Shown piece after piece: positions 8,607-51,107 of a stretch of 64,000 nucleotides of DNA; position 1 is the first letter of the stretch, and every line of letters begins with the position of its first letter. The stretch is from Candidatus Moraniibacteriota bacterium (GTDB lineage Bacteria > Patescibacteriota > Minisyncoccia > Moranbacterales > UBA1568). The translations under genes were made by a program, and so were the position numbers. The DNA is taken from assembly GCA_963743885.1 (NCBI GenBank), contig CAVURJ010000001.1, forward strand, positions 566,321 through 630,320, written 5' to 3'. Below the pieces are notes generated by a model. It was not told where the DNA came from. It searched no databases and saw only the letters and a program-made list of their open reading frames with translations.

Positions 8607-11244
8607 ATGAACATCGGAAAATTCACTACCAAGAGTCAGGAAGCCATCCGCAATGCGCAGGAGATCGCGCTTTCGCGGAACAACCCGCAGATGGATACAG
8701 CACACCTGCTCTATGCACTGTTGCTCCAGCCTGATTCCATCGTGCCGGCCGTTTTCGGCGAGCTTGAGGCGGATATTGAGAAGTTGAAGGGCGGCATCCT
8801 CGCTGAGATAGACAAGTTTCCGCAGGCGGAAGCGGGTGTACTTGGGAGTCTGTATTTGTCACCGGGATTTGCACGGACATTGTCTGAAGCTGAAGACCAG
8901 ATGGGAAAGATCGGGGATGATTTCGTCTCGACCGAGCATCTTTTGCTCTCACTGCTTTCCGTCGGCGGTCCCATGAAGACGCTCCTCGAGAAGAACGGTG
9001 TGAAGTATGATGATGTGCTCCGCATACTCTCTGAGCTCCGTGGCGGACAGAAGGTGGAAAGCCAGGACCCTGAGCAGACGTACCAGGCGCTCGAGAAGTA
9101 CGCTATCAATCTGACCGAGCTCGCACGCGCTGAGAAGCTCGATCCAGTCATTGGTCGTGATGACGAGATCCGCCGTGTGATGCAGATCCTTTCGCGTCGC
9201 ACCAAGAACAATCCCGTCTTGATTGGCGAGGCTGGCACTGGCAAGACCGCCATCGCGGAAGGTCTGGCGCAGCGCATCGTCTCGGGTGACGTGCCGGAGA
9301 ACTTGAAGGGCAAGGAAGTCATATCGCTCGATCTCGGAGCGCTCCTTGCGGGTGCGAAATTTCGCGGCGAGTTCGAGGAGCGGCTCAAGGCTATCCTCAA
9401 AGAGATTGAGCGTTCGGCTGACCGTTTCATCCTTTTCATCGATGAGCTGCATACGCTTGTGGGTGCCGGCGCGACCGAGGGTGCACTCGATGCGTCGAAC
9501 ATGCTAAAGCCCGCGCTCTCGCGTGGCAGACTCCGCACGATCGGCGCAACGACGATCAAGGAGTACCAGCGTTATATCGAGAAGGACGCAGCGCTTGAGC
9601 GGCGTTTCCAGCCGGTCATCGTGAGTGAGCCGTCGGAAGAGGATGCAATCGCCATCCTGCGCGGCATCAAGGAGAAATACGCGCTCCATCACGGCGTGAA
9701 GATCACCGATGATGCGCTCATCGCAGCTGTGAAGCTTTCCAAGCGTTATATCGCTGACCGTTTCTTGCCGGACAAGGCGATCGACCTCATCGATGAGGCG
9801 GCGTCGCTCCGCCGTATGGAGATTGATTCGATGCCGACTGAACTTGATCAGGATGAGCGGAGCATCCGGCGCCTGGAGATCGAGAAGCCGCGCGCTTGAG
9901 AAGGAGGGCGGCGCCGAGAAGAAGGTACGGGAAATCAACCGGGAGCTCGCGGAGCTCCGGGAGCGTTCGCAGAAGCTGTCGCTCCGTTGGAAGACCGAAC
10001 GCGAACTCATCATGGCGATGCGTGGGCACAAGGCTGATATTGATAAACTAAGGAGCGAGGCTGAGATGGCCGAGCGCCAAGGTGAGCTCGACCGTGTGGC
10101 GGAGATCCGCTATGGTCGCATCCCAGAGATCGAGAAGAAGCTCCTTGCTGAAGAGAAACGCCTTGTGAAGCTTCAGAAGGACGGTTCGATTCTGCACGAG
10201 GAGATCAGCGAGGAGGATATCGCCGCGGTCGTCTCGCGTGCGACTGGTATCCCAATCGCCAAGATGCTCGAGAAGGAAGCGGAGAAGCTCGTCCATATGG
10301 AAGCGGCGCTCCAGACGAGGGTCATTGGTCAGGATGATGCCGTGAAAGCGGTCGCGAGTGCGATCCGACGCTCGAGAGCAGGGCTCGCCGAGGAGACGAA
10401 GCCGATCGGATCATTCATTTTCCTTGGATTGACCGGCGTCGGCAAGACCGAGCTCGCCAAGGCTTTGGCGCAGTTCCTCTTTGATGATGAGAAAGCGCTG
10501 GTGCGCGTGGATATGAGCGAATACATGGAGTCGCACTCGGTCGCCAAGATGATTGGGTCGCCCCCGGGCTATGTGGGGTATGAGGAGGGTGGTCAGCTGA
10601 CGGAGACTATCCGTCGGAGGCCGTACAGCGTCGTGCTCTTCGATGAGATCGAGAAGGCGCATCCGGATGTTTTCAACGCGCTGCTCCAAATCCTCGATGA
10701 TGGACGCCTGACCGATAGCAAAGGGCGTGTCGTCAATTTCAAGAATACCGTCATTATCATGACGTCGAATGTCGGGTCCGATATCCTGGTCCGGGCCAAG
10801 GGCCTCGGTTTCAAGGGTGACCGGAGCGGTGATGATGGGACGTTGTCCGAGGATGAGATCCGCGAGCGTATCCTCTCCAGCCTGCGCGAGCGCTTCAAGC
10901 CGGAATTCCTGAATCGTATCGATGAGACGATTATCTTCCATCCGCTCTCTGAAAAGGTCTTCGGCGGCATCGTTGATTTGCAGCTCGCGCGTGTTGTCGA
11001 GCGCCTTGCGAAGCAGGGGGTGCGGATCCGGTTTGCGGCACAAGTAAAGGCGTATCTCGCGAAGAAGGGGTATGATCCCGCCTATGGCGCCCGCCCGCTC
11101 AAGCGGCTGATCCAGAACGAGATCCTCGATCCGCTGTCGCTTGAAATTCTCGAGAAAAAGGTGCAGGGGGGCGATGTAGTGGAAACCTCCATAGGGAAGG
11201 ACAGGGTGGTTTTTAAAAAGATGGAAAAGAAAAGGAAAAAATAG
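8607..11244 (+). CDS. clpB: Chaperone ClpB (Hsp100 disaggregase), interrupted by an apparent +1 frameshift near 9887-9895
   Basis: An N-domain, NBD1 ([27 protein letters not shown]), an M-domain coiled coil, NBD2 ([31 protein letters not shown]) and the [10 protein letters not shown] motif are all present. The reading frame switches in the gccgcgcgc run: IEK-PRA* in one frame, then ALEKEGG... in the next. Confidence 0.85.
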
Positions 11245-11245
11245 A

Positions 11246-11365
11246 ATCATGAATCAGGAATCATGAATCAAGAAACAGCATCTAGAGAGGCTGTTTTCGG
11301 TATGGTATAGTATGAGAAAGGGATTTCTCGTCATAATTCTCGATTCTTAATTCCTGATTCTTCTT
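11246..11365. repeat. Low-complexity imperfect inverted repeat spacer built from gaatca / tgattc words
   Basis: gaatcatgaatcaggaatcatgaatcaag ... attctcgattcttaattcctgattcttcttc. It also contains a short hairpin AACAGC...GCTGTT followed by TTTT. Confidence 0.5.
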
Positions 11366-33526: not shown

Positions 33527-35149
33527 ATGGGCCAGATCATTCTTGTAGCAGCCATATTGAATATCTTCCTCGGGGCACTCGCTTTGGGAAGAGGCGAGAG
33601 AAAGAAAGAGATCATTTCTTTCGGTTGGTTCTGCATCATTACTGGCTTTTGGGGACTTTCGAATTTCATCGCGTACTATGTTTTTTTTGATGCGGTCCTT
33701 GTCCGGCTGACATATGCCTCTGGTGCGCTCATGGTCGCATCGCTCTTTGCCTGGTCGCTTTTCTACAACGGCCAACTCAAAAGCTATCGGTTGCATATCA
33801 CGGCCTATCTCGCCGGTATCATCATGGGAATACTCTCGATGTTTGACGGATTCGTTGTCGGGGCGATCCGAAGCGTGAGCGTGAGCGGCATCGACGCGGA
33901 TGAAGGCCGATTCTTCGGTCTCTTCAGTCTTTATCTTTTCCTGATGATTATCGGATCGGTTGTCCATGTCGCTATTCTTCGGCATCGGTTTTCCGGTCTT
34001 AAGAGACGTCAGGCGGGGTTTGTCCTGATCGGTGTCTCTATTTTCATGCTCAATACCCTTTTGGTGAGCGGTGTGTTGCCGACATTCGGTATTTTTGACT
34101 ATACCAATCTTGATAGCCCGAGTTCGCTCATCTTCGTCCTGTTCACTATGGTAGCCGTGGTACGTCATAGGCTGCTTGGCGCTAAAGTCATCCTGGCGCA
34201 GGTTTTGGTGGGTGTCCTTGTGGCGACTTCGCTCATCCAGCTGCTTAATTCCCGATCCTTTTCGGATTGGGTGATGAATTCTGTGGCATTGATGACGGTT
34301 CTTGTTGTTGGAGCGCTTCTTGTGAAAAGCGTTATGGACGAAGTGCGGCGCAAGGATGAGCTCGAAAGGATGACGAAGCAGCTGAAGGCTGCCAATCAGG
34401 AGCTGCGTCGATTGGATGTCGCCAAGTCGGAGTTCATTTCCATCGCGTCGCATCAGCTGCGCACGCCGCTCTCCGCCGTCAAAGGCTATGTTTCGCTCAT
34501 GCTCGAGGGATCATATGGTGTAGTAAGCACCAAGATGCAGGACGCACTCGATAAGGTGTATCTCATCAATGGTCACCTTGCTTCGCTCGTTGATGACCTC
34601 CTGGATATCTCACGTATCGAATCCGGGAAGGTAGAGTACCATTTTATCCCGCTCAGCCTTGAGCTGATCGTCTCTGAGATTGCCGACATGTTCGCTGTCT
34701 TAGCAAGGAGTAGGGGGGTATCTTTGGAGCTAGTCTCTCCGAAGAAACCGTTGCCGAAACTTCCGCTCGACGAGAGCAAGATACGTGAAGTCGTTTCGAA
34801 CCTCATCGACAATGCTCTCAAGTATACCGAGCGGGGCAGGGTGAAGGTGTCTTTCGAATCGCATGCGCGGTCGGTGCGGCTCATCGTTGAAGACACGGGC
34901 GCAGGCATCGCTGCTGAGGATATGCCGCGCCTTTTTGAGAAATTCATCCGCAGCCGCAACACATCGGTAATCGATGTCTCGGGCACTGGTCTCGGGCTCT
35001 ATGTGAGCCGCAATTTCATCGAAGCGCACGGCGGCCGGATCTGGGCAGAGTCTGAAGGTCTCGGCAGAGGCTCGCGTTTTATCGTGGAGTTGCCAATCCG
35101 ACGGGAGAAAAAAGTGGTTTCACTAGCAAAAACCGATTTTAGTCATTGA
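33527..35149 (+). CDS. Sensor histidine kinase with a polytopic N-terminal membrane domain
   Basis: HisKA H-box SEFISIASHQLRTPL, and HATPase_c motifs (N box, G1 DTGAGI, G2 GTGLGLYV). Confidence 0.85.
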   Translation: MGQIILVAAILNIFLGALALGRGERKKEIISFGWFCIITGFWGLSNFIAYYVFFDAVLVRLTYASGALMVASLFAWSLFYNGQLKSYRLHITAYLAGIIMGILSMFDGFVVGAIRSVSVSGIDADEGRFFGLFSLYLFLMIIGSVVHVAILRHRFSGLKRRQAGFVLIGVSIFMLNTLLVSGVLPTFGIFDYTNLDSPSSLIFVLFTMVAVVRHRLLGAKVILAQVLVGVLVATSLIQLLNSRSFSDWVMNSVALMTVLVVGALLVKSVMDEVRRKDELERMTKQLKAANQELRRLDVAKSEFISIASHQLRTPLSAVKGYVSLMLEGSYGVVSTKMQDALDKVYLINGHLASLVDDLLDISRIESGKVEYHFIPLSLELIVSEIADMFAVLARSRGVSLELVSPKKPLPKLPLDESKIREVVSNLIDNALKYTERGRVKVSFESHARSVRLIVEDTGAGIAAEDMPRLFEKFIRSRNTSVIDVSGTGLGLYVSRNFIEAHGGRIWAESEGLGRGSRFIVELPIRREKKVVSLAKTDFSH

Positions 35150-35617: not shown

Positions 35618-35623
35618 ATTTCT

Positions 35624-35700
35624 TATTACCAAACGAAGCGAGTGAAACGAAAGCGTACTTTTGTTTCCGAGCGCAGTGTTGGTAAAATCGGGTCAATACC
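35624..35700 (+). repeat. ~80-nt intergenic repeat, copy 2
   Basis: attaccaaacgaagcgagtGAAACGAAAGcgtaCTTTTGTTTCcgagcgcagtgttggtaaaatcgggtcaataccc. Confidence 0.7.
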
Positions 35701-35770
35701 CGTTATTTTGATGTCACACTGGATATTTTCCAGGACATATTTCGGAATGAGTTATTTTGACAACCTTTGA

Positions 35771-36241
35771 TTGCCGAGGAGGCAGGAAATGAAACTGAGA
35801 AAGCAGCTGAGCTGGTTTACTGGCGCGCTGTTCGCGCTTCTTTGTGTGTTGTTTATCGTAACCTGGTGGCGTGACGGGTCAGAGTTTTTCAATGAGTCGT
35901 ATGGTATCGATCCGGTGCTTCTGACGGTAATTGCGATAGGTACGGAAGTGCTGTTCAATATCGGTGTCGTCATGATGCTGGTCGGGAGCGGGATGCACAG
36001 GCTGACCATTAAGGAAATATGGGATTTTGATTTTGAGAGAATCCGTTTTTCTGGTAATTTGGTGCATGTTGGATTCTGGTTGAACCGCGTTGTCTCGGCT
36101 GTGCCATCGAGCTATGTCTTGCTCGTCGGGTTTTCGAAGCTGCCTGGCTGGGTGAATACCCTTCTTTTTCTCGAGCTTTTTGGCGTAGTATTGGCCGGAT
36201 TTCTCATCAAGTCGTATCTTTTGGAAGAACGAACGGTTTGA
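35771..36241 (+). CDS. Small membrane protein, function unknown
   Basis: Three or four hydrophobic helices. Confidence 0.4.
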   Translation: MPRRQEMKLRKQLSWFTGALFALLCVLFIVTWWRDGSEFFNESYGIDPVLLTVIAIGTEVLFNIGVVMMLVGSGMHRLTIKEIWDFDFERIRFSGNLVHVGFWLNRVVSAVPSSYVLLVGFSKLPGWVNTLLFLELFGVVLAGFLIKSYLLEERTV

Positions 36242-37168: not shown

Positions 37169-38857
37169 ATGTTACTTATTCCTGAAAGCATCTTTCTGTG
37201 GGGAACAGTGTTCCTTGTATTTTTTATTGGAGCCTTTGTTGTTTATAAAGATCCGAAACAATATTTGAATAAGAGTTTTTTTCTATTCACGTTGGCAGTG
37301 ATAATTTGGATTATTGCTGTATACTTTGAGGATAATGTTTCCAATCCGATAACGCGCATTTATTTACTTAATCTTGATTTTTCAGCAGGCGCTTTTTTGG
37401 TGTTTAGTTTGTTGCTGTTGTGTCTTGATATGGTCCAGTCTGATTTGGTGAGAAGGCCACTAGCAAGAGTGTTAATTTTTGTTATTCCGGTTATTTTGAG
37501 TGTTCTTATTTTTAGTTCAGATTTTATTATAAGTGGTTATGAATTTTCAAAATTTGGCATACTAGTTCCGATGTATGGTAGTTTTGGATTTCTTTATGAT
37601 GTGATAGTTGCTATTGTCGCTTTGGCTGGACTTGGCATTGTGTTATGGAAATATAATGACGTTGGTTCTGCTGATAAGACTCGTTACGCATATTTCATGG
37701 TTGGACTTCTTCTTTCTATATTGACCGCGCTGGTCACTAATGTCATCCTTGGCGATTATATACAGAATAGCCCGTATTATAGTATTTATTCTCGCTTCGG
37801 AATTTATGGGATGCTTTTTATAGTCTTGTTTCCGGGTTACGCGATTATTCGGCATAAGCTTTTTAATATTCGTGTAATTGCTGCTGAGACGCTTTCTTTT
37901 CTGATGCTACTTATCATGTTCGTTCAGATATTCTTTTCTGAGAACATGTTCCAGATTTTTGCCAGAGCCCTTTTGTTTCTCGTGTTCTTTATTCTTGTCG
38001 TCATGCTTATTCGTTCCATTGAGAACGAAGTCGAGCGCAAGGAGGAGCTGCAGATGATCTCGGACAGCTTGGCGTCGGCCAATGAGCGGCTGCGACGGCT
38101 CGATAACGCCAAGTCGGAGTTCATCTCCATCGCGTCGCACCAGTTGCGCACACCGCTTACTGCCATCAAGGGATATGTCTCGCTCATCCTCGAGGGGTCG
38201 TACGGCAAGGTGAGCGCGGAAGTGGAGGACGTGCTCGAGAAAGTGTACGGGGTCCAGGGGCAGCTCGCGCAGCTCGTCGAGGATTTGCTCAATGTCTCTC
38301 GCATCGAGTCTGGTCGTATCCAGTATCAGTATGCGCCGGTCCGACTTGAGATGATCATCACTGATCTGGTTGATATGTTTTCAATCACAGCCAAGGACAA
38401 GGGAATCGCGCTTCGGATGCATCTCTCCAAGAAGGCGTTGCCACAGCTTACGATCGATGCCGGGAAGATCAAGGAGACAATCTCCAATCTTATCGATAAC
38501 GCCGTGAAGTATACGCCGCAGGGTGGGGAAGTAAGGATTTTTCTTGAGGGCGATGAAGAGCGTCACGTGGCGCGCGTGACCGTCGAGGATACCGGTGTCG
38601 GCATCCTTCCGGAAGATAAGGACAGACTGTTTGAAAAGTTCGTGAGGAGCAAGGAGACGGCGAAGATGGTGACATCTGGCACGGGTCTCGGCCTGTACGT
38701 TGGCAAGAACTTCGTCGAGGCGCATGGCGGCCGGATCTGGGCAGAATCGGAAGGTCAGGGGCAAGGGGCGCGTTTCATTGTGGAGCTGCCGTACGAGTAT
38801 TCCGCTGCCGGTCGTGATGAGGTCGCGACATTCGGCAAGAGCTATGAGGGGAAGTAG
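37169..38857 (+). CDS. Sensor histidine kinase, paralog of the gene at 33527, with a different AT-rich N-terminal membrane sensor domain
   Basis: H-box SEFISIASHQLRTPL and HATPase_c motifs. The N-terminal ~260 codons are AT-rich, while the kinase core is GC-rich. Confidence 0.85.
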   Translation: MLLIPESIFLWGTVFLVFFIGAFVVYKDPKQYLNKSFFLFTLAVIIWIIAVYFEDNVSNPITRIYLLNLDFSAGAFLVFSLLLLCLDMVQSDLVRRPLARVLIFVIPVILSVLIFSSDFIISGYEFSKFGILVPMYGSFGFLYDVIVAIVALAGLGIVLWKYNDVGSADKTRYAYFMVGLLLSILTALVTNVILGDYIQNSPYYSIYSRFGIYGMLFIVLFPGYAIIRHKLFNIRVIAAETLSFLMLLIMFVQIFFSENMFQIFARALLFLVFFILVVMLIRSIENEVERKEELQMISDSLASANERLRRLDNAKSEFISIASHQLRTPLTAIKGYVSLILEGSYGKVSAEVEDVLEKVYGVQGQLAQLVEDLLNVSRIESGRIQYQYAPVRLEMIITDLVDMFSITAKDKGIALRMHLSKKALPQLTIDAGKIKETISNLIDNAVKYTPQGGEVRIFLEGDEERHVARVTVEDTGVGILPEDKDRLFEKFVRSKETAKMVTSGTGLGLYVGKNFVEAHGGRIWAESEGQGQGARFIVELPYEYSAAGRDEVATFGKSYEGK

Positions 38858-42375: not shown

Positions 42376-42540
42376 AATGGTGAATTGAGAATCAAGAATT
42401 ATGAATGGGATGGGATCCGGAGAGTGTATTTCCAGGAATGGATGCTTTGCAGTTTTTGTCAGCAAATCGTACAAGAAAGGGAAACGGCTGATATGCAAAT
42501 CTTGATTCTTAATTCTTGATTCTGGATTCTTTTCCTATTA
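42376..42540. repeat. Low-complexity imperfect inverted repeat spacer (gaatcaagaattatgaatgg / aatcttgattcttaattcttgattc)
   Basis: Uses the same word family as the spacer at 11246. Confidence 0.45.
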
Positions 42541-43397: not shown

Positions 43398-43942
43398 AGA
43401 TATTCCTTCTCCGATCTTCTGCTATCGTTATCGCTGTCGCACTGCAGCTGTCATTCTTCGATATCGCTTTTCCGTGGTTCCATGTGCCGCTCCTGCTCAT
43501 AGCGTGTGTGGTGGCCTGGACGCTCGCACTCGGCTTTCCTGAATCGCTTCGGATGACCGTGCCGCTCTCGGTCGCTTTCGAGGTGTTTTCCTCGGGTACT
43601 GTCGGTATTTTCTCGCTCTACGCCGTCCTCCTCGCGTATGCGACGAGCTTCCTGTCGCGCCGTATTTTGGTCGGGCAGCGCGGTGCCGGTGCATTTTTGT
43701 ATGCAGTCTTCACGGCGGCGATGGCGCTCGCTTATCAGGGAGCGATGTATCTGCTTCTGCGTAGCCGGACAGATGCCGCCGAGTCGGATCTTCTGCGTCT
43801 CCCATCTGAATTTTCACCTGGTATGCTGTTCCTTTCTGTCGCTCTTGCCATCCTAGCGTTCCTCATCGCCTATCCGGCCATCTTACGCTTCGAAGAGCGT
43901 GCGAAATCAATTGCCCAGAAGCAGTTTTTGAATGTCAGGTAA
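43394..43942 (+). CDS. mreD: Putative rod shape-determining protein MreD
   Basis: A small polytopic membrane protein that overlaps the mreC stop, between mreC and mrdA. Confidence 0.5.
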   Translation: MKIFLLRSSAIVIAVALQLSFFDIAFPWFHVPLLLIACVVAWTLALGFPESLRMTVPLSVAFEVFSSGTVGIFSLYAVLLAYATSFLSRRILVGQRGAGAFLYAVFTAAMALAYQGAMYLLLRSRTDAAESDLLRLPSEFSPGMLFLSVALAILAFLIAYPAILRFEERAKSIAQKQFLNVR

Positions 43943-44099
43943 TATGCCCGGTAGTAGAATTTCGAAATGAGATTCTTCCAGGGAATGAAAAAACCGATGT
44001 ACGTATTTTTCCACGGTCGTAGGAAAATATGTACATTCTGAATCAAAAGAGATATAGACGTGATTAAGTTAATTGTTCGAAATTTCACTACCGGGTATG
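43941..44099 (+). promoter_or_regulatory. Long-range inverted repeat, copy B. The 5' arm is atatgcccggtagtagaatttcgaa (43941-43965) and the 3' arm is ttcgaaatttcactaccgggtATG (44076-44099), containing the mrdA start codon
   Basis: The arms are reverse complements of each other at 20 of 22 positions. An internal GTACGTATTTTTCC...GGAAAATATGTAC inverted repeat lies between them. Confidence 0.6.
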
Positions 44100-45986: not shown

Positions 45987-46111
45987 GCGGCTCACGGAAT
46001 GATGCCGGAGGAGATGAAGAGGAGCACGCGCCCCGTTGCAAATCTGAGGAAAATTCTCCGATATAAAGGTATAACGGGTATTCACCTCAGGGCAAGCCCT
46101 GGACTAAAAAA

Positions 46112-46183
46112 ACGAACCGATTTTACCAGCACTCGCTCGGAAACGAAAGTACACTTTCGTTTCGCTCGCTTCGTTTGGTAATA
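46112..46183 (-). repeat. ~80-nt intergenic repeat, copy 3 (reverse orientation)
   Basis: Its reverse complement reads attaccaaacgaagcgagcGAAACGAAAGTgtacACTTTCGTTTCcgagcgagtgctggtaaaatcgg. Confidence 0.7.
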
Positions 46184-46350
46184 AAAACCGTAGGGGATTG
46201 CTTTCGAGTTGATGTAAAATACCTCTATCAAGCCTCATTTGCAATGGGGTTGACAATACCCCGCCTTCTGATACCATAAGAGGCGCTTTCGATAATTCTC
46301 TTCCTTCGGGAATGAGAGTTTTTGTTTCAATACTGATAATACCAACCATC

Positions 46351-46806
46351 ATGGCGCGGATTTTTACTGAAGAAGGTCTCCGGAAGATAAAGGAGGAGCT
46401 CGAGGATCGCAAGACGACGCTTCGCCAGGAGATCGCGGCCGCTATCAAGGAAGCCAAGGAGCAGGGCGACCTCTCCGAGAACGCTGAGTACAGCGAGGCC
46501 AAGCATCAGCAGAACGAGAATGAGTCGCGCATCGCTGAGCTCGAGACCATGCTCAAGGATTCCGTCGTCGCTGCGAAGCACCGGAGCACCTCGACCGTCG
46601 GCATCGGCTCGCGTCTTACCGTGAAGGTCGGCCACAAGGAGATGCAGTTCACGATCGTCGGTTCGAATGAAGTCGATCCGGCCCAGGGCAAGATCTCCAA
46701 TGAGTCTCCGCTCGGCAAGGAGTTCATGGGCAAGGGGAAGGGCGATAAGATTGAGTTCGCTGCTCCGGCTGGCAAGGTCAAATACGAGATCCTTGAGATC
46801 AAGTAG
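46351..46806 (+). CDS. greA: Transcription elongation factor GreA
   Basis: MARIFTEEGLRKIKEELE... with DLSENAEYSEAK in the N-terminal coiled coil, and a C-terminal FKBP-like domain. Confidence 0.9.
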   Translation: MARIFTEEGLRKIKEELEDRKTTLRQEIAAAIKEAKEQGDLSENAEYSEAKHQQNENESRIAELETMLKDSVVAAKHRSTSTVGIGSRLTVKVGHKEMQFTIVGSNEVDPAQGKISNESPLGKEFMGKGKGDKIEFAAPAGKVKYEILEIK

Positions 46807-47493: not shown

Positions 47494-47546
47494 CTTGCCT
47501 TTTCGCTTGGAAAAGGCTAAAATATGGCTACTATCTTGTGAAAACA

Positions 47547-47680
47547 CTATGCCTGGTAGTAGAACTTCGACCGAGCATTCAGAATTATTACAAAAAGGCA
47601 GGTATTTCCGATATAACAAGAACTAATCAATCTTCCTCGATTTCATAAGAAATTGTCGAAGTTTCACTGACTTAGGTATG
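47547..47680 (+). promoter_or_regulatory. Long-range inverted repeat, copy C. The 5' arm is ctatgcctggtagtagaacttcga (47547-47570) and the 3' arm is tcgaagtttcactgacttaggtATG (47656-47680), containing the lysS start codon
   Basis: The match between arms is less perfect than in copies A and B: an 8-bp perfect core AACTTCGA plus flanking matches. Confidence 0.5.
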
Positions 47681-49275: not shown

Positions 49276-49341
49276 GGATGATTAGCTCAGTTGGTTACCC
49301 GCCCGAACGTACCGTTCGGTACGGGCGGGGAGCACAGCATT
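49276..49341 (+). other. tRNA-like 5' fragment (acceptor GGATGAT, D-arm GCTC-AGTTGGTTA-GAGC) carrying a 32-nt GC-rich palindromic insert in the D-loop
   Basis: GGATGATTAGCTCAGTTGGTTA [cccgcccgaacgtaccgttcggtacgggcggg] GAGCACAGCATT. The anticodon stem cannot close, so this is not a functional tRNA as written. Confidence 0.45.
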
Positions 49342-49349
49342 AACAACCT

Positions 49350-49423
49350 GGTCGCATAGTTCAGTTGGTTAGAACGTTCGATTCACATTCGAAAGGTCCC
49401 TGGTTCGAGTCCAGGTGCGACCA
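49350..49423 (+). tRNA. tRNA-Val (anticodon CAC)
   Basis: Clean cloverleaf: acceptor GGTCGCA/TGCGACC, D-arm AGTTCAGTTGGTTAGAACG, anticodon stem TTCGA/TCGAA with loop TTCACAT, T-arm CCTGG-TTCGAGT-CCAGG, discriminator A. No CCA is encoded. Confidence 0.85.
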
Positions 49424-49440
49424 CAGGAGGAGTTTAAGTG

Positions 49441-49560
49441 GTTCAGTTTCTGCTCGGAGTTGAGCAGTTGGTTACCCGCCCGTACCGAACGGTACGTTCG
49501 GGCGGGGAGCACAGCATTCACATTGCTGGGGTCACTGGTTCGAATCCAGTATTGTCCACA
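49441..49560 (+). other. tRNA-derived partial duplicate: D-loop, the 32-nt insert in reverse orientation, and a tRNA-Val(CAC) 3' portion (CAGCATTCACATTGCTG-GGGTC-ACTGGTTCGAATCCAGT-ATTGTCC)
   Basis: It shares a 40-nt exact block with 49613-49653. No matching 5' acceptor strand is present. Confidence 0.45.
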
Positions 49561-49564
49561 GGAG

Positions 49565-49662
49565 GTTCAGTTTCCGCCAAAGGTGGACCCGCCTCAGGCG
49601 GGGGTTAGAGCGCAGCATTCACATTGCTGGGGTCACTGGTTCGAATCCAGTATCATCCGCAA
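49565..49662 (+). other. tRNA-derived partial duplicate: 3' portion of tRNA-Val(CAC), whose acceptor strand ATCATCC is perfectly complementary to the GGATGAT at 49276
   Basis: ...GAGCGCAGCATTCACATTGCTGGGGTCACTGGTTCGAATCCAGTATCATCCG. Joining 49276-49297 to this 3' portion would reconstitute a perfect 73-nt tRNA-Val(CAC). Confidence 0.45.
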
Positions 49663-50977: not shown

Positions 50978-51107
50978 TAAGGAATGAGGGAGAGCGGCTC
51001 TGTTGGGGGCTTTTCTTTTTGCTTTTTTCAGCCAAAACCGCTACACTAGGAGCTGTAATCACCGTTTTTCTTGATTCTTGTCTCTTGATTCTTTACTCTT
51101 CTTCAAT

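Follow-up and report, generated by a model that had tools for sequence, protein, structure and literature searches.

The window analysed here, a 64,000-nt stretch of the genome of a Candidatus Moraniibacteriota bacterium (contig CAVURJ010000001.1, positions 566,321 to 630,320), carries three copies of a structured intergenic element which recurs in a clade of Candidatus Moranbacteria, a group within the candidate phyla radiation (CPR; Patescibacteria). The element is probably a family of small, non-coding and non-autonomous mobile repeats similar to repetitive extragenic palindromic (REP) sequences, BOX elements and miniature inverted-repeat transposable elements (MITEs). It represents a new family among the small structured interspersed mobile repeats, a well-known kind, and its host group is unusual. 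The tiny, streamlined CPR genomes are rarely described with interspersed repeats, and no account of such a repeat in Moranbacteria or CPR bacteria was found in full-text literature searches.

The original prediction, made from the sequence of the window, proposed a three-copy repeat of ~80 nt, and the element is indeed present at all three places with covariance model scores of 87-106 bits. The model, R1, derives from 22 copies of the short form, of which 21 belong to other genomes and one is window copy 2. With filters off, copy 2 reaches 106.1 bits, copy 1 89.3 bits (over 8329-8412) and copy 3 87.2 bits (90.4 bits in a separate evaluation), while the next unrelated match in the 64 kb, the reverse strands of the same palindromes aside, has 13.5 bits, which shows that the window holds exactly three copies. 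The palindrome GAAACGARAG-N4-CTYTYGTTTC equally occurs at exactly three window sites (six strand-matches) against a chance expectation of 0.08. The copies align with each other well beyond this stem and share (A/G)TACCCGTTAT further downstream, and every copy is bounded by TTATTACC or (T)TATTACC at the start and by CCCGTTAT at the finish. The positions thus held, but not the length, as the true spans are 84-154 nt (Table 1), with copies 1 and 3 being long forms that possess GC-rich hairpins between GGTAAAATCGG and the shared 3′ end.

Anatomy, borders and fold statistics were derived from an alignment of 47 copies, in which conservation starts sharply at (T)TATTACC and stops sharply at CCCGTTAT, while the flanks are unrelated. 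The short form of 83-85 nt (24 copies) reads TTATTACCAAACGAAGYGAGYGAAACGAAAG-N4-CTTTCGTTTCCGAGCG(N)AGTGCCGGTAAAATCGGGT-NAAT-ACCCGTTAT. Its 5′ module is an imperfect hairpin of ~60 nt, which proceeds inward from an outer stem TTACC/GGTAA and a helix of 2-4 bp through a 3x3 loop of G-N-A over G-N-A, a GC/GC step, a 2x2 tandem G.A loop and a bulged pyrimidine to an apical 10-bp stem, GAAACGAAAG/CTTTCGTTTC, with a tetraloop that is free to vary. Both internal loops are purine-rich with tandem G.A pairs. An invariant AAAAT linker (AAAAUC as RNA) follows 3′ of this module and precedes the 3′ hairpin CGGGT-NAAT-ACCCG, which has a 5-bp stem and is succeeded by the TTAT that ends the element.

The other 23 copies are long forms, in which the loop of the 3′ hairpin accommodates between one and three additional GC-rich hairpin modules, such as CCCCGCGG-CTTG-CCGCGGGG, GAAACGAAC-ATCA-GTTCGTTTC and CCAGGG-CTTG-CCCTGG; elsewhere in the window these modules were not found as an independent repeat. 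Two copies (L005 and L031) have an additional hairpin inside the 5′ arm and one (L016) is truncated, variation that is typical of decaying or mosaic repeats. Copies of the same genome, as in MFSB01 (L002, L023, L039), CAYLJX01 and JAYTWI01, share diagnostic substitutions and module sets, and subfamilies defined by diagnostic variants also span different genomes. Most copies carry GAAG at the position preceding the palindrome, where one subfamily has GTAG; GTAG is restricted to window copy 1 and to L012, L015, L018, L022, L025, L034, L036, L041 and L043.

To assess distribution, one genome per species (185,579 species genomes) was searched with a pattern of 21 bases taken from the 5′ module, in its 3′ half, for which ~2 chance matches are expected by our own estimate. 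The scan yielded 44 loci, so that the element is far from confined to the three window sites; it is found ~45 times in ~25 Moranbacteria species genomes. All loci but one lie in metagenome-assembled genomes (MAGs) labelled Candidatus Moranbacteria/Moraniibacteriota, Patescibacteria, Minisyncoccota or 'uncultured Bdellovibrionales'. The one in a Clostridia genome (L044) was rejected as a chance match, since it sits in an open reading frame (ORF) and the rest of the element is absent. Several genomes are multi-copy, with seven exact-pattern copies on the 0.83 Mb of CAYLJX01 contigs and three copies inside 8 kb in L038, compared with three in the 64 kb of the window, which by extrapolation suggests a copy number of ~10-50 per ~1-Mb genome. 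No element was detected in a scan of viral contigs nor in 80 metagenomic loci (322 kb) encoding a GreA 60-82% identical to the window GreA, and together with the single-clade outcome of the genome scan these observations show that the family is limited to a sub-lineage of Candidatus Moranbacteria. A blastn search of the element against 72,556 plasmids gave no match.

The MAGs labelled 'uncultured Bdellovibrionales' comprise L006, L007, L009, L011-L013, L015, L018, L021, L022, L025, L028, L030, L035, L040, L041 and L043. As these contigs carry the element and also genes that are 72-80% nucleotide-identical to bona fide Moranbacteria contigs and to the window, the label looks wrong, or at least doubtful.

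Mobility is indicated by presence/absence polymorphism at orthologous sites. One base-exact case comes from two species in which the genes on either side are orthologous: when its flanks are joined, the filled site (L030) aligns in a single block across the junction with the empty site (L011). The empty site reads TCCCTTATT|CAAGCCAAAAAATAG (the bar marks the junction), while the filled site reads TCCCTTATT followed by the element, ACCAAACG...ATACCCTTTATT, and then AGAGCCAAAAAATAG, which at the level of single bases corresponds to CCCTTATT|ACC...TTTATT|AGAGCC versus CCCTTATT|CAAGCC. The insertion has changed the C-terminus of a glycosyltransferase from ...LIQAKK to ...LITKRSE, each before the stop. 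Two approximate pairs are a tRNA gene adjoined by the element in L023, the same tRNA flank being without it in L034, and a T-run occupied by the element in L038 (1658-1741), within intergenic sequence that L025 conserves without the insertion. In addition, the spacer between mrdA and greA, which in the window measures 325 nt (45987-46311) with the 114-nt element, is empty and ~50-60 nt long in L047, L049 and L050. Two site pairs (L006/L009 and L013/L037) are common to close relatives. No further exact empty sites were found, as the flanks at L011:1234 versus L030 and at L025:4054 versus L038 are too diverged or non-syntenic.

The end profiles, 5′ t 77%, T 94%, T 89%, A, T and T 100% each, A 98%, C 96% and C 100%, and 3′ C-C-G followed by T 100%, T 100%, A 100%, T 96%, T 74%, t 55% and t 55%, demonstrate a T-rich target with a TTAT(T) core, which is seen at both borders of the filled site and once in the empty site. 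The 5′ TTAT, at the junction TTATT|ACC, is less conserved than the 3′ TTAT. Its variants CTAT, TCAT, TGAT and CGAT have no counterpart at the 3′ end in any copy, and the bases further out fail to match as well, which makes a simple duplication of 4-5 bp unlikely. The 5′ variant TCATTACC (TCAT) is common to L012 and L041, two copies of one genome, whose 5′ bases, judged from the sequence, therefore probably travel with the element. The pattern fits recombination or cleavage within a TTAT core common to the element junction and the target.

The orientation of the 47 copies relative to the flanking genes is random. Relative to the upstream and downstream gene, respectively, the 38 classified copies divide into 16 opposite/opposite, 12 same/same, five same/opposite and five opposite/same, with the reservation that the underlying ORF calls are rough and that window copy 1 is mis-called since clpB is split in two. 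All of these sites are intergenic or at the extreme ends of genes. Clustering of 336 ORFs from the 44 loci revealed no recurrent neighbour family except common GT4 glycosyltransferases, taken as coincidental; one glycosyltransferase gene common to L007 and L039 has different neighbours in each. Upstream of the element nothing is conserved but T-richness, with no promoter at a fixed distance. In seven copies the terminal TTAT contains the TAA stop codon used by a converging gene, and in several the element reaches into the end of the ORF upstream. The random orientation, the filled and empty orthologous sites and the variants shared within genomes support the small mobile repeat that the original prediction had put forward, and the spread over four orientation classes with unrelated downstream genes upholds its case against a 5′ leader.

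The element has in addition a conserved fold, which is stable (z about -4). Helices 1-3 of the 5′ module are paired in 98% of cells, with double-sided changes at nine pairs (a total of 40 cells); in 500 column shuffles no pairing measure came up to its observed value, and slid-partner controls are 25-49% paired. For example, seven copies have replaced G-C by A-U at position 6 of the stem, the pair flanking the G.A loop varies among C-G, U-A and U-G, and the 'GTGTAG' subfamily has G-C in place of A-U in its inner helix. Covariation extends to the GC modules, from CGCGG/CCGCG to CGTGG/CCACG and CGCAG/CTGCG. On the element strand, G.U pairs (n=42) exceed A.C mismatches (n=13), which indicates that this strand, and not its complement, is under selection to fold. 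These pairing and G.U/A.C counts are not phylogenetically independent and are treated as strong support, not as a probability, for a conserved strand-specific single-stranded structure, be it RNA or single-stranded DNA. Of the expectation that the stem is typical of a structured RNA, the conserved strand-specific fold consequently stands, while RNA is not established, as single-stranded DNA fits equally. Compensatory change was also expected within the window itself, where one true double change is indeed present (A-T to G-C at stem position 8 of copy 1); the proposed match of G-to-A with C-to-T is in fact a single G.T wobble caused by C-to-T in copy 2.

As a mechanism for a mobile repeat, one specific strand would fold as a single-stranded intermediate that would be recognised by a trans-acting enzyme encoded elsewhere in the genome, for which the hairpins and G.A loops would be the recognition features. 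Recognition of the fold in trans would keep sequence and pairing across species of different GC content. How the intermediate would be processed can be proposed tentatively at best: single-stranded DNA may be handled by an HUH-type nuclease, or another site-specific recombinase may act on the TTAT core. The former is favoured because terminal inverted repeats and a clear duplication are lacking, because cleavage appears to follow TTAT(T) at both ends and because of a weak excess of copies on the G-rich strand (31/47). The left junction TATT|AC also resembles HUH nick sites. Confidence in this step is low because the end hairpins are dissimilar and no Y1 gene was seen in the limited DNA searched. 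A circle or excision junction of the element would read ...ATACCCGTTAT|TACCAAACG.... As side effects on the host, the element may supply stop codons and, when in sense, its 3′ hairpin with a U-rich tail may act as a terminator.

Several observations weigh against a mobile repeat. No transposase or recombinase is linked to the element and no gene recurs near the copies at the 44 loci. A tblastn search of 714 kb, which is a few percent of each genome, with IS608 TnpA, IS200 TnpA and the Escherichia coli REP-associated tyrosine transposase (RAYT) as queries, detected no IS200- or RAYT-type homologue, with nothing below E = 0.19. Twenty window ORFs examined outside the element flanks are housekeeping genes or have no Pfam match, with no transposase among them, and the genes flanking the window copies are likewise housekeeping or without match (NCBIfam). 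Only one filled/empty junction is base-exact, and the strand bias, assessed by GC skew, is weak. With no terminal inverted repeats and no clear target-site duplication the element is not a textbook MITE; its ends are TTATTACCAAAC and GAATACCCGTTAT, and only ~4/6 positions of the 5′ end agree with the 3′ end once the latter is reverse-complemented (ATAACGGGTATT). Finally, the identity of 85-95% between species whose flanks range from 42 to 56% GC exceeds the expectation for neutral relics and also fits a host function for an RNA, and the CUUG tetraloops, G.U pairs and tandem G.A loops are reminiscent of RNA.

The alternative that survives best, although it is unlikely in itself, is a cassette kept by the host to end transcription and to supply stops at gene ends, which would be compatible with mobility. 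The 3′ hairpin and tail of copy 2, directly after speH, are flagged as terminator-like, at least five T are present in the eight bases past the 3′ hairpin in 34/47 copies, and the stop codons and ORF overlaps described above point in the same direction. However, the short forms have a stem of just 5 bp, a U-rich tail is missing from copies 1 and 3, and five of the 38 classified copies are located between diverging genes, with no depletion there. The T-rich tail may moreover merely mirror the T-rich target preference, and the large conserved 5′ module is left unexplained.

Somewhat less likely still, the element might go beyond a selfish repeat, in that the tandem G.A loops, the invariant AAAAUC linker and the expandable CUUG-capped hairpins would constitute a conserved strand-specific nucleic acid module bound by a CPR-specific protein. 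This could be a new kind of enzyme for hairpin-guided mobilisation at the TTAT core without a recognisable IS200- or RAYT-type transposase. Otherwise, transposition may have spread a domesticated RNA that serves the cell, in genomes that are poor in repeats.

An RNA family, either of small RNA genes transcribed on their own or of a domesticated RNA module that binds a protein, with the fold as the functional product, is considered improbable. The strongly conserved fold with its compensatory changes, the one-strand excess of G.U pairs, the CUUG tetraloops in the extra modules, the high identity between species despite differing genome GC and the terminator-like U-rich tail past the 3′ hairpin in 34/47 copies all agree with such an RNA. 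The independent small RNA had been the second option of the original prediction; it is opposed by the unconserved upstream sequence without a fixed-distance promoter and by copy 3, for which no promoter-like site is found on its own strand. Furthermore, copy 1 lies inside the 5′ untranslated region (UTR) of clpB, copy 2 abuts the speH stop codon, some copies overlap ORF ends and, in L030, encode a C-terminus (ITKRSE), and insertion polymorphism exists.

A cis-regulatory leader (riboswitch, protein-binding leader or thermometer) for the downstream gene, as might be thought for clpB from the stable fold and the sense position of copy 1 between a CIRCE-regulated promoter and the clpB start, is effectively refuted by the orientation statistics, with ~1/3 of the copies co-oriented with the downstream gene and many facing a converging gene or lying antisense to both neighbours, besides unrelated downstream genes, the absence of the element upstream of greA in the 80 related loci and no match to an Rfam riboswitch or leader family.

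The gene contexts of the three window copies are as predicted, upstream of clpB, downstream of speH and antisense upstream of greA. Copy 1 is located downstream of the clpB promoter TTGACA-17-TATTTT (8271-8299) and belongs to the clpB leader. A perfect CIRCE operator, TTAGCACTC-N9-GAGTGCTAA (8262-8288), overlaps the -35/-10 region of this promoter. Thus, clpB in this CPR genome appears to be HrcA-controlled with copy 1 inserted in its leader, where the repeat may affect expression of a heat-shock gene locally. The clpB gene is split into overlapping ORFs in different frames (8607-9899 and 9793-11244), which match TIGR03346 positions 1-421 (N-terminal half) and 423-853 (C-terminal half), and this could reflect a frameshift, a sequencing error or a pseudogene. 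The 3′ border of copy 2 lies 82 nt ahead of the ATG of the next ORF at 35789. Copy 3 is flanked by the stop codon of the penicillin-binding protein 2 gene mrdA (45986) on one side and by the greA promoter (46250-46277) on the other, and it runs antisense to mrdA as well as greA. Public gene calling places an 81-aa minus-strand 'gene' in this spacer (window 46104-46502, -) which overlaps copy 3 and is likely a spurious ORF created by the repeat.

Table 1. Copies of the element in the window and their parts (window positions).
Feature	Position	Strand	Remark
Copy 1, long form, 154 nt	8329..8482	+	within clpB 5′ UTR, downstream of CIRCE-overlapping promoter
Copy 1, 5′ module, long imperfect hairpin	8329..8394	+	followed by linker AAAT
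Copy 1, outer stem	TTACC 8332-8336 with GGTAA 8387-8391	+	internal loops hold tandem G.A pairs
Copy 1, terminal 10-bp hairpin GAAACGAGAG-TTTA-CTCTCGTTTC	8350..8373	+	
Copy 1, three inserted GC-rich hairpin modules	8405..8470	+	within 3′ hairpin; -44 kcal/mol (fold)
Copy 1, GC modules singly	8405-8424 (CTTG loop), 8426-8444, 8445-8470 (CTTG loop)	+	
Copy 1, conserved 3′ end GTACCCGTTAT	8472..8482	+	
Copy 2, short form, 84 nt	35623..35706	+	begins 5 nt past speH stop codon
Copy 2, terminal hairpin GAAACGAAAG-CGTA-CTTTTGTTTC	35644..35667	+	one G.T wobble
Copy 2, 3′ hairpin CGGGT-CAAT-ACCCG, then terminal TTAT	35689..35706	+	with T-rich flank, flagged terminator-like
Copy 3, long form, 114 nt, one GC module	46071..46184	-	between mrdA stop and greA promoter
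Copy 3, terminal hairpin GAAACGAAAG-TGTA-CTTTCGTTTC	46140..46163	-	
Copy 3, GC module CCAGGGCTTGCCCTGAGG	46085..46102	-	
Copy 3, conserved 3′ end ATACCCGTTAT	46071..46081	-	

The window contains additional repeats. A second, unrelated one, AATATGCCCGGTAG(C/T)A(C/G)AA(C/T)TTC(A/G)AA, occurs three times (4222-4356, 43941-43966 and 47546-47571); at the first site its inverted arms (4225-4247 and 4334-4356) are 86 nt apart, and it looks like a MITE with terminal inverted repeats. It is found with an inverted partner also in another Moranbacteria genome (L039, ~1900-2035 and 3555-3578). AT-rich short repeats of the GAATCAAGAATCA type (11243-11275, 11337-11360, 42382-42406, 42505-42529 and 51067-51099) often form inverted pairs just past gene ends, after clpB, after mreB and before the gene at 51078. 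A tRNA-Val(CAC) gene (49350-49424) is accompanied by a weak tRNA-Val-like copy (49487-49559, 32.6 bits) and a partial third (~49608-49661), with a perfect 32-nt inverted repeat (49298-49329/49475-49506), and the tRNA region 49288-49661 is rearranged or duplicated. A 116-nt direct repeat of 78% identity (34979-35094/38675-38790) is located in the 3′ parts of the histidine-kinase genes 33527-35149 and 37169-38857, which are probably paralogues.

With respect to applicability, filled and empty sites make the element a marker for strain and population variation in metagenomes, and phyletic profiling of its distribution provides a handle on the mobilising enzyme. The element is also likely to cause assembly breaks and spurious ORF calls such as the 81-aa call over copy 3, and it alters gene ends, as seen from the new C-terminus in L030 and the stop codons in seven copies. 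If the mobilising enzyme is new or the RNA functional, the importance of the element would rise.

Among known families, Rfam 15 at gathering thresholds gave three tRNA matches only for the whole window, and permissive scans of copies 1 and 2 produced only matches with E >= 0.4, so that no Rfam family matches the element. The best sub-threshold match, for copy 2, is the lactis-plasmid RNA motif RF01742, of which the element is most unlikely to be a distant member. In its favour, the full model aligns over 35619-35705, both share a long A/U-rich hairpin with GA-containing internal loops and similar loop nucleotides (GAAnCGAG / CGAGnGnA), followed by a small 3′ hairpin, and the genuine motif is located at or overlapping mobC. 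Against it, the alignment reaches just 17.4 bits (E = 2.2, 241 nt searched) where the gathering score is 70, and in the reciprocal search R1 assigns 7.6-9.6 bits to the genuine motifs of L045 and L046, less than to unrelated hairpins there, so that neither direction gives statistical support. In addition, the plasmid search with the element was empty, and plasmid mobC regions differ from chromosomal intergenic sites. The lactis-plasmid motif is in itself present on 349 plasmid records, 300 from Lactococcus and 41 from Enterococcus, 230 of which are typed mobilizable, and is found immediately upstream of or overlapping mobC in pHP003 (L045, 1501-1604) and pNZ4000 (L046, 1501-1606); it may mark an origin of transfer as a DNA hairpin and not an RNA.

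Integron attC sites possess complementary R″ (RYYYAAC) and R′ (GTTRRRY) boxes at their ends and form arrays of one orientation. The element was rejected as such a site since its 3′ end GTTATTT departs from GTTRRRY, a complementary ATAAC is missing from its 5′ end and it is dispersed in both orientations. Readings as a Xer/dif site and as a TA-duplicating MITE were equally rejected on the end sequences. Classical MITEs (Correia/NEMIS, RUP and ERIC) resemble the element as small non-autonomous insertions in intergenic DNA and at gene ends, with filled/empty polymorphism, altered 3′ ends of genes and added terminator-like hairpins. They differ in that the ends of the element, TTATTACC and CCCGTTAT, are not inverted repeats and that there is no clean duplication of TA or another target.

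The REP/REPIN sequences mobilised by RAYT and the palindrome-associated elements (PATEs) derived from IS200/IS605 come closer. Like the element, they have no terminal inverted repeats, no evident target duplication and strand-specific hairpins, insert by a short fixed sequence (here TTAT) and show a weak bias of the G-rich, leading type; cross-species sequence conservation would be expected if a vertically inherited enzyme recognises the sequence. The ends of IS200/IS605 carry similar subterminal hairpins bound by one TnpA, whereas the 5′ hairpin of the element (the GAAACGAAAG stem in a 60-nt hairpin) and its 3′ hairpin (CGGGT/ACCCG) are unrelated. Insertion 3′ of a fixed tetranucleotide without duplication, as in PATEs, is consistent with the junction TTATT|ACC, with the TTAT at the finish of the element and with the weaker conservation of the 5′ TTAT, although the TCAT shared by L012 and L041 speaks against it. 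The GTAG/GGAG that precedes the palindrome in REP sequences is not general in the element, where GTAG occurs in one subfamily only, and no homologue of a RAYT (Y1 HUH) gene, which REP sequences typically flank, was found in the 714 kb searched.

BOX of Streptococcus pneumoniae and BIME/REP (bacterial interspersed mosaic elements) of enterobacteria are small, non-coding, intergenic and multi-copy like the element. They combine constant end modules with a variable number of internal hairpins, as do the 24 short and 23 long forms, fold stably as a single strand, occur in either orientation to genes and contain no internal transposase. The element differs by the absence of sequence similarity, by its CPR host with a very small genome, by a modest copy number (~10-50 per genome by extrapolation), by a 5′ module that is a long hairpin with conserved non-Watson-Crick G.A loops instead of a simple palindrome and by a defined insertion site (TTAT). 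Cumulatively, the behaviour of the element is closest to that of the mosaic repeats, BOX and BIME/REP-REPIN, and of the hairpin-based IS200/IS605 PATEs.

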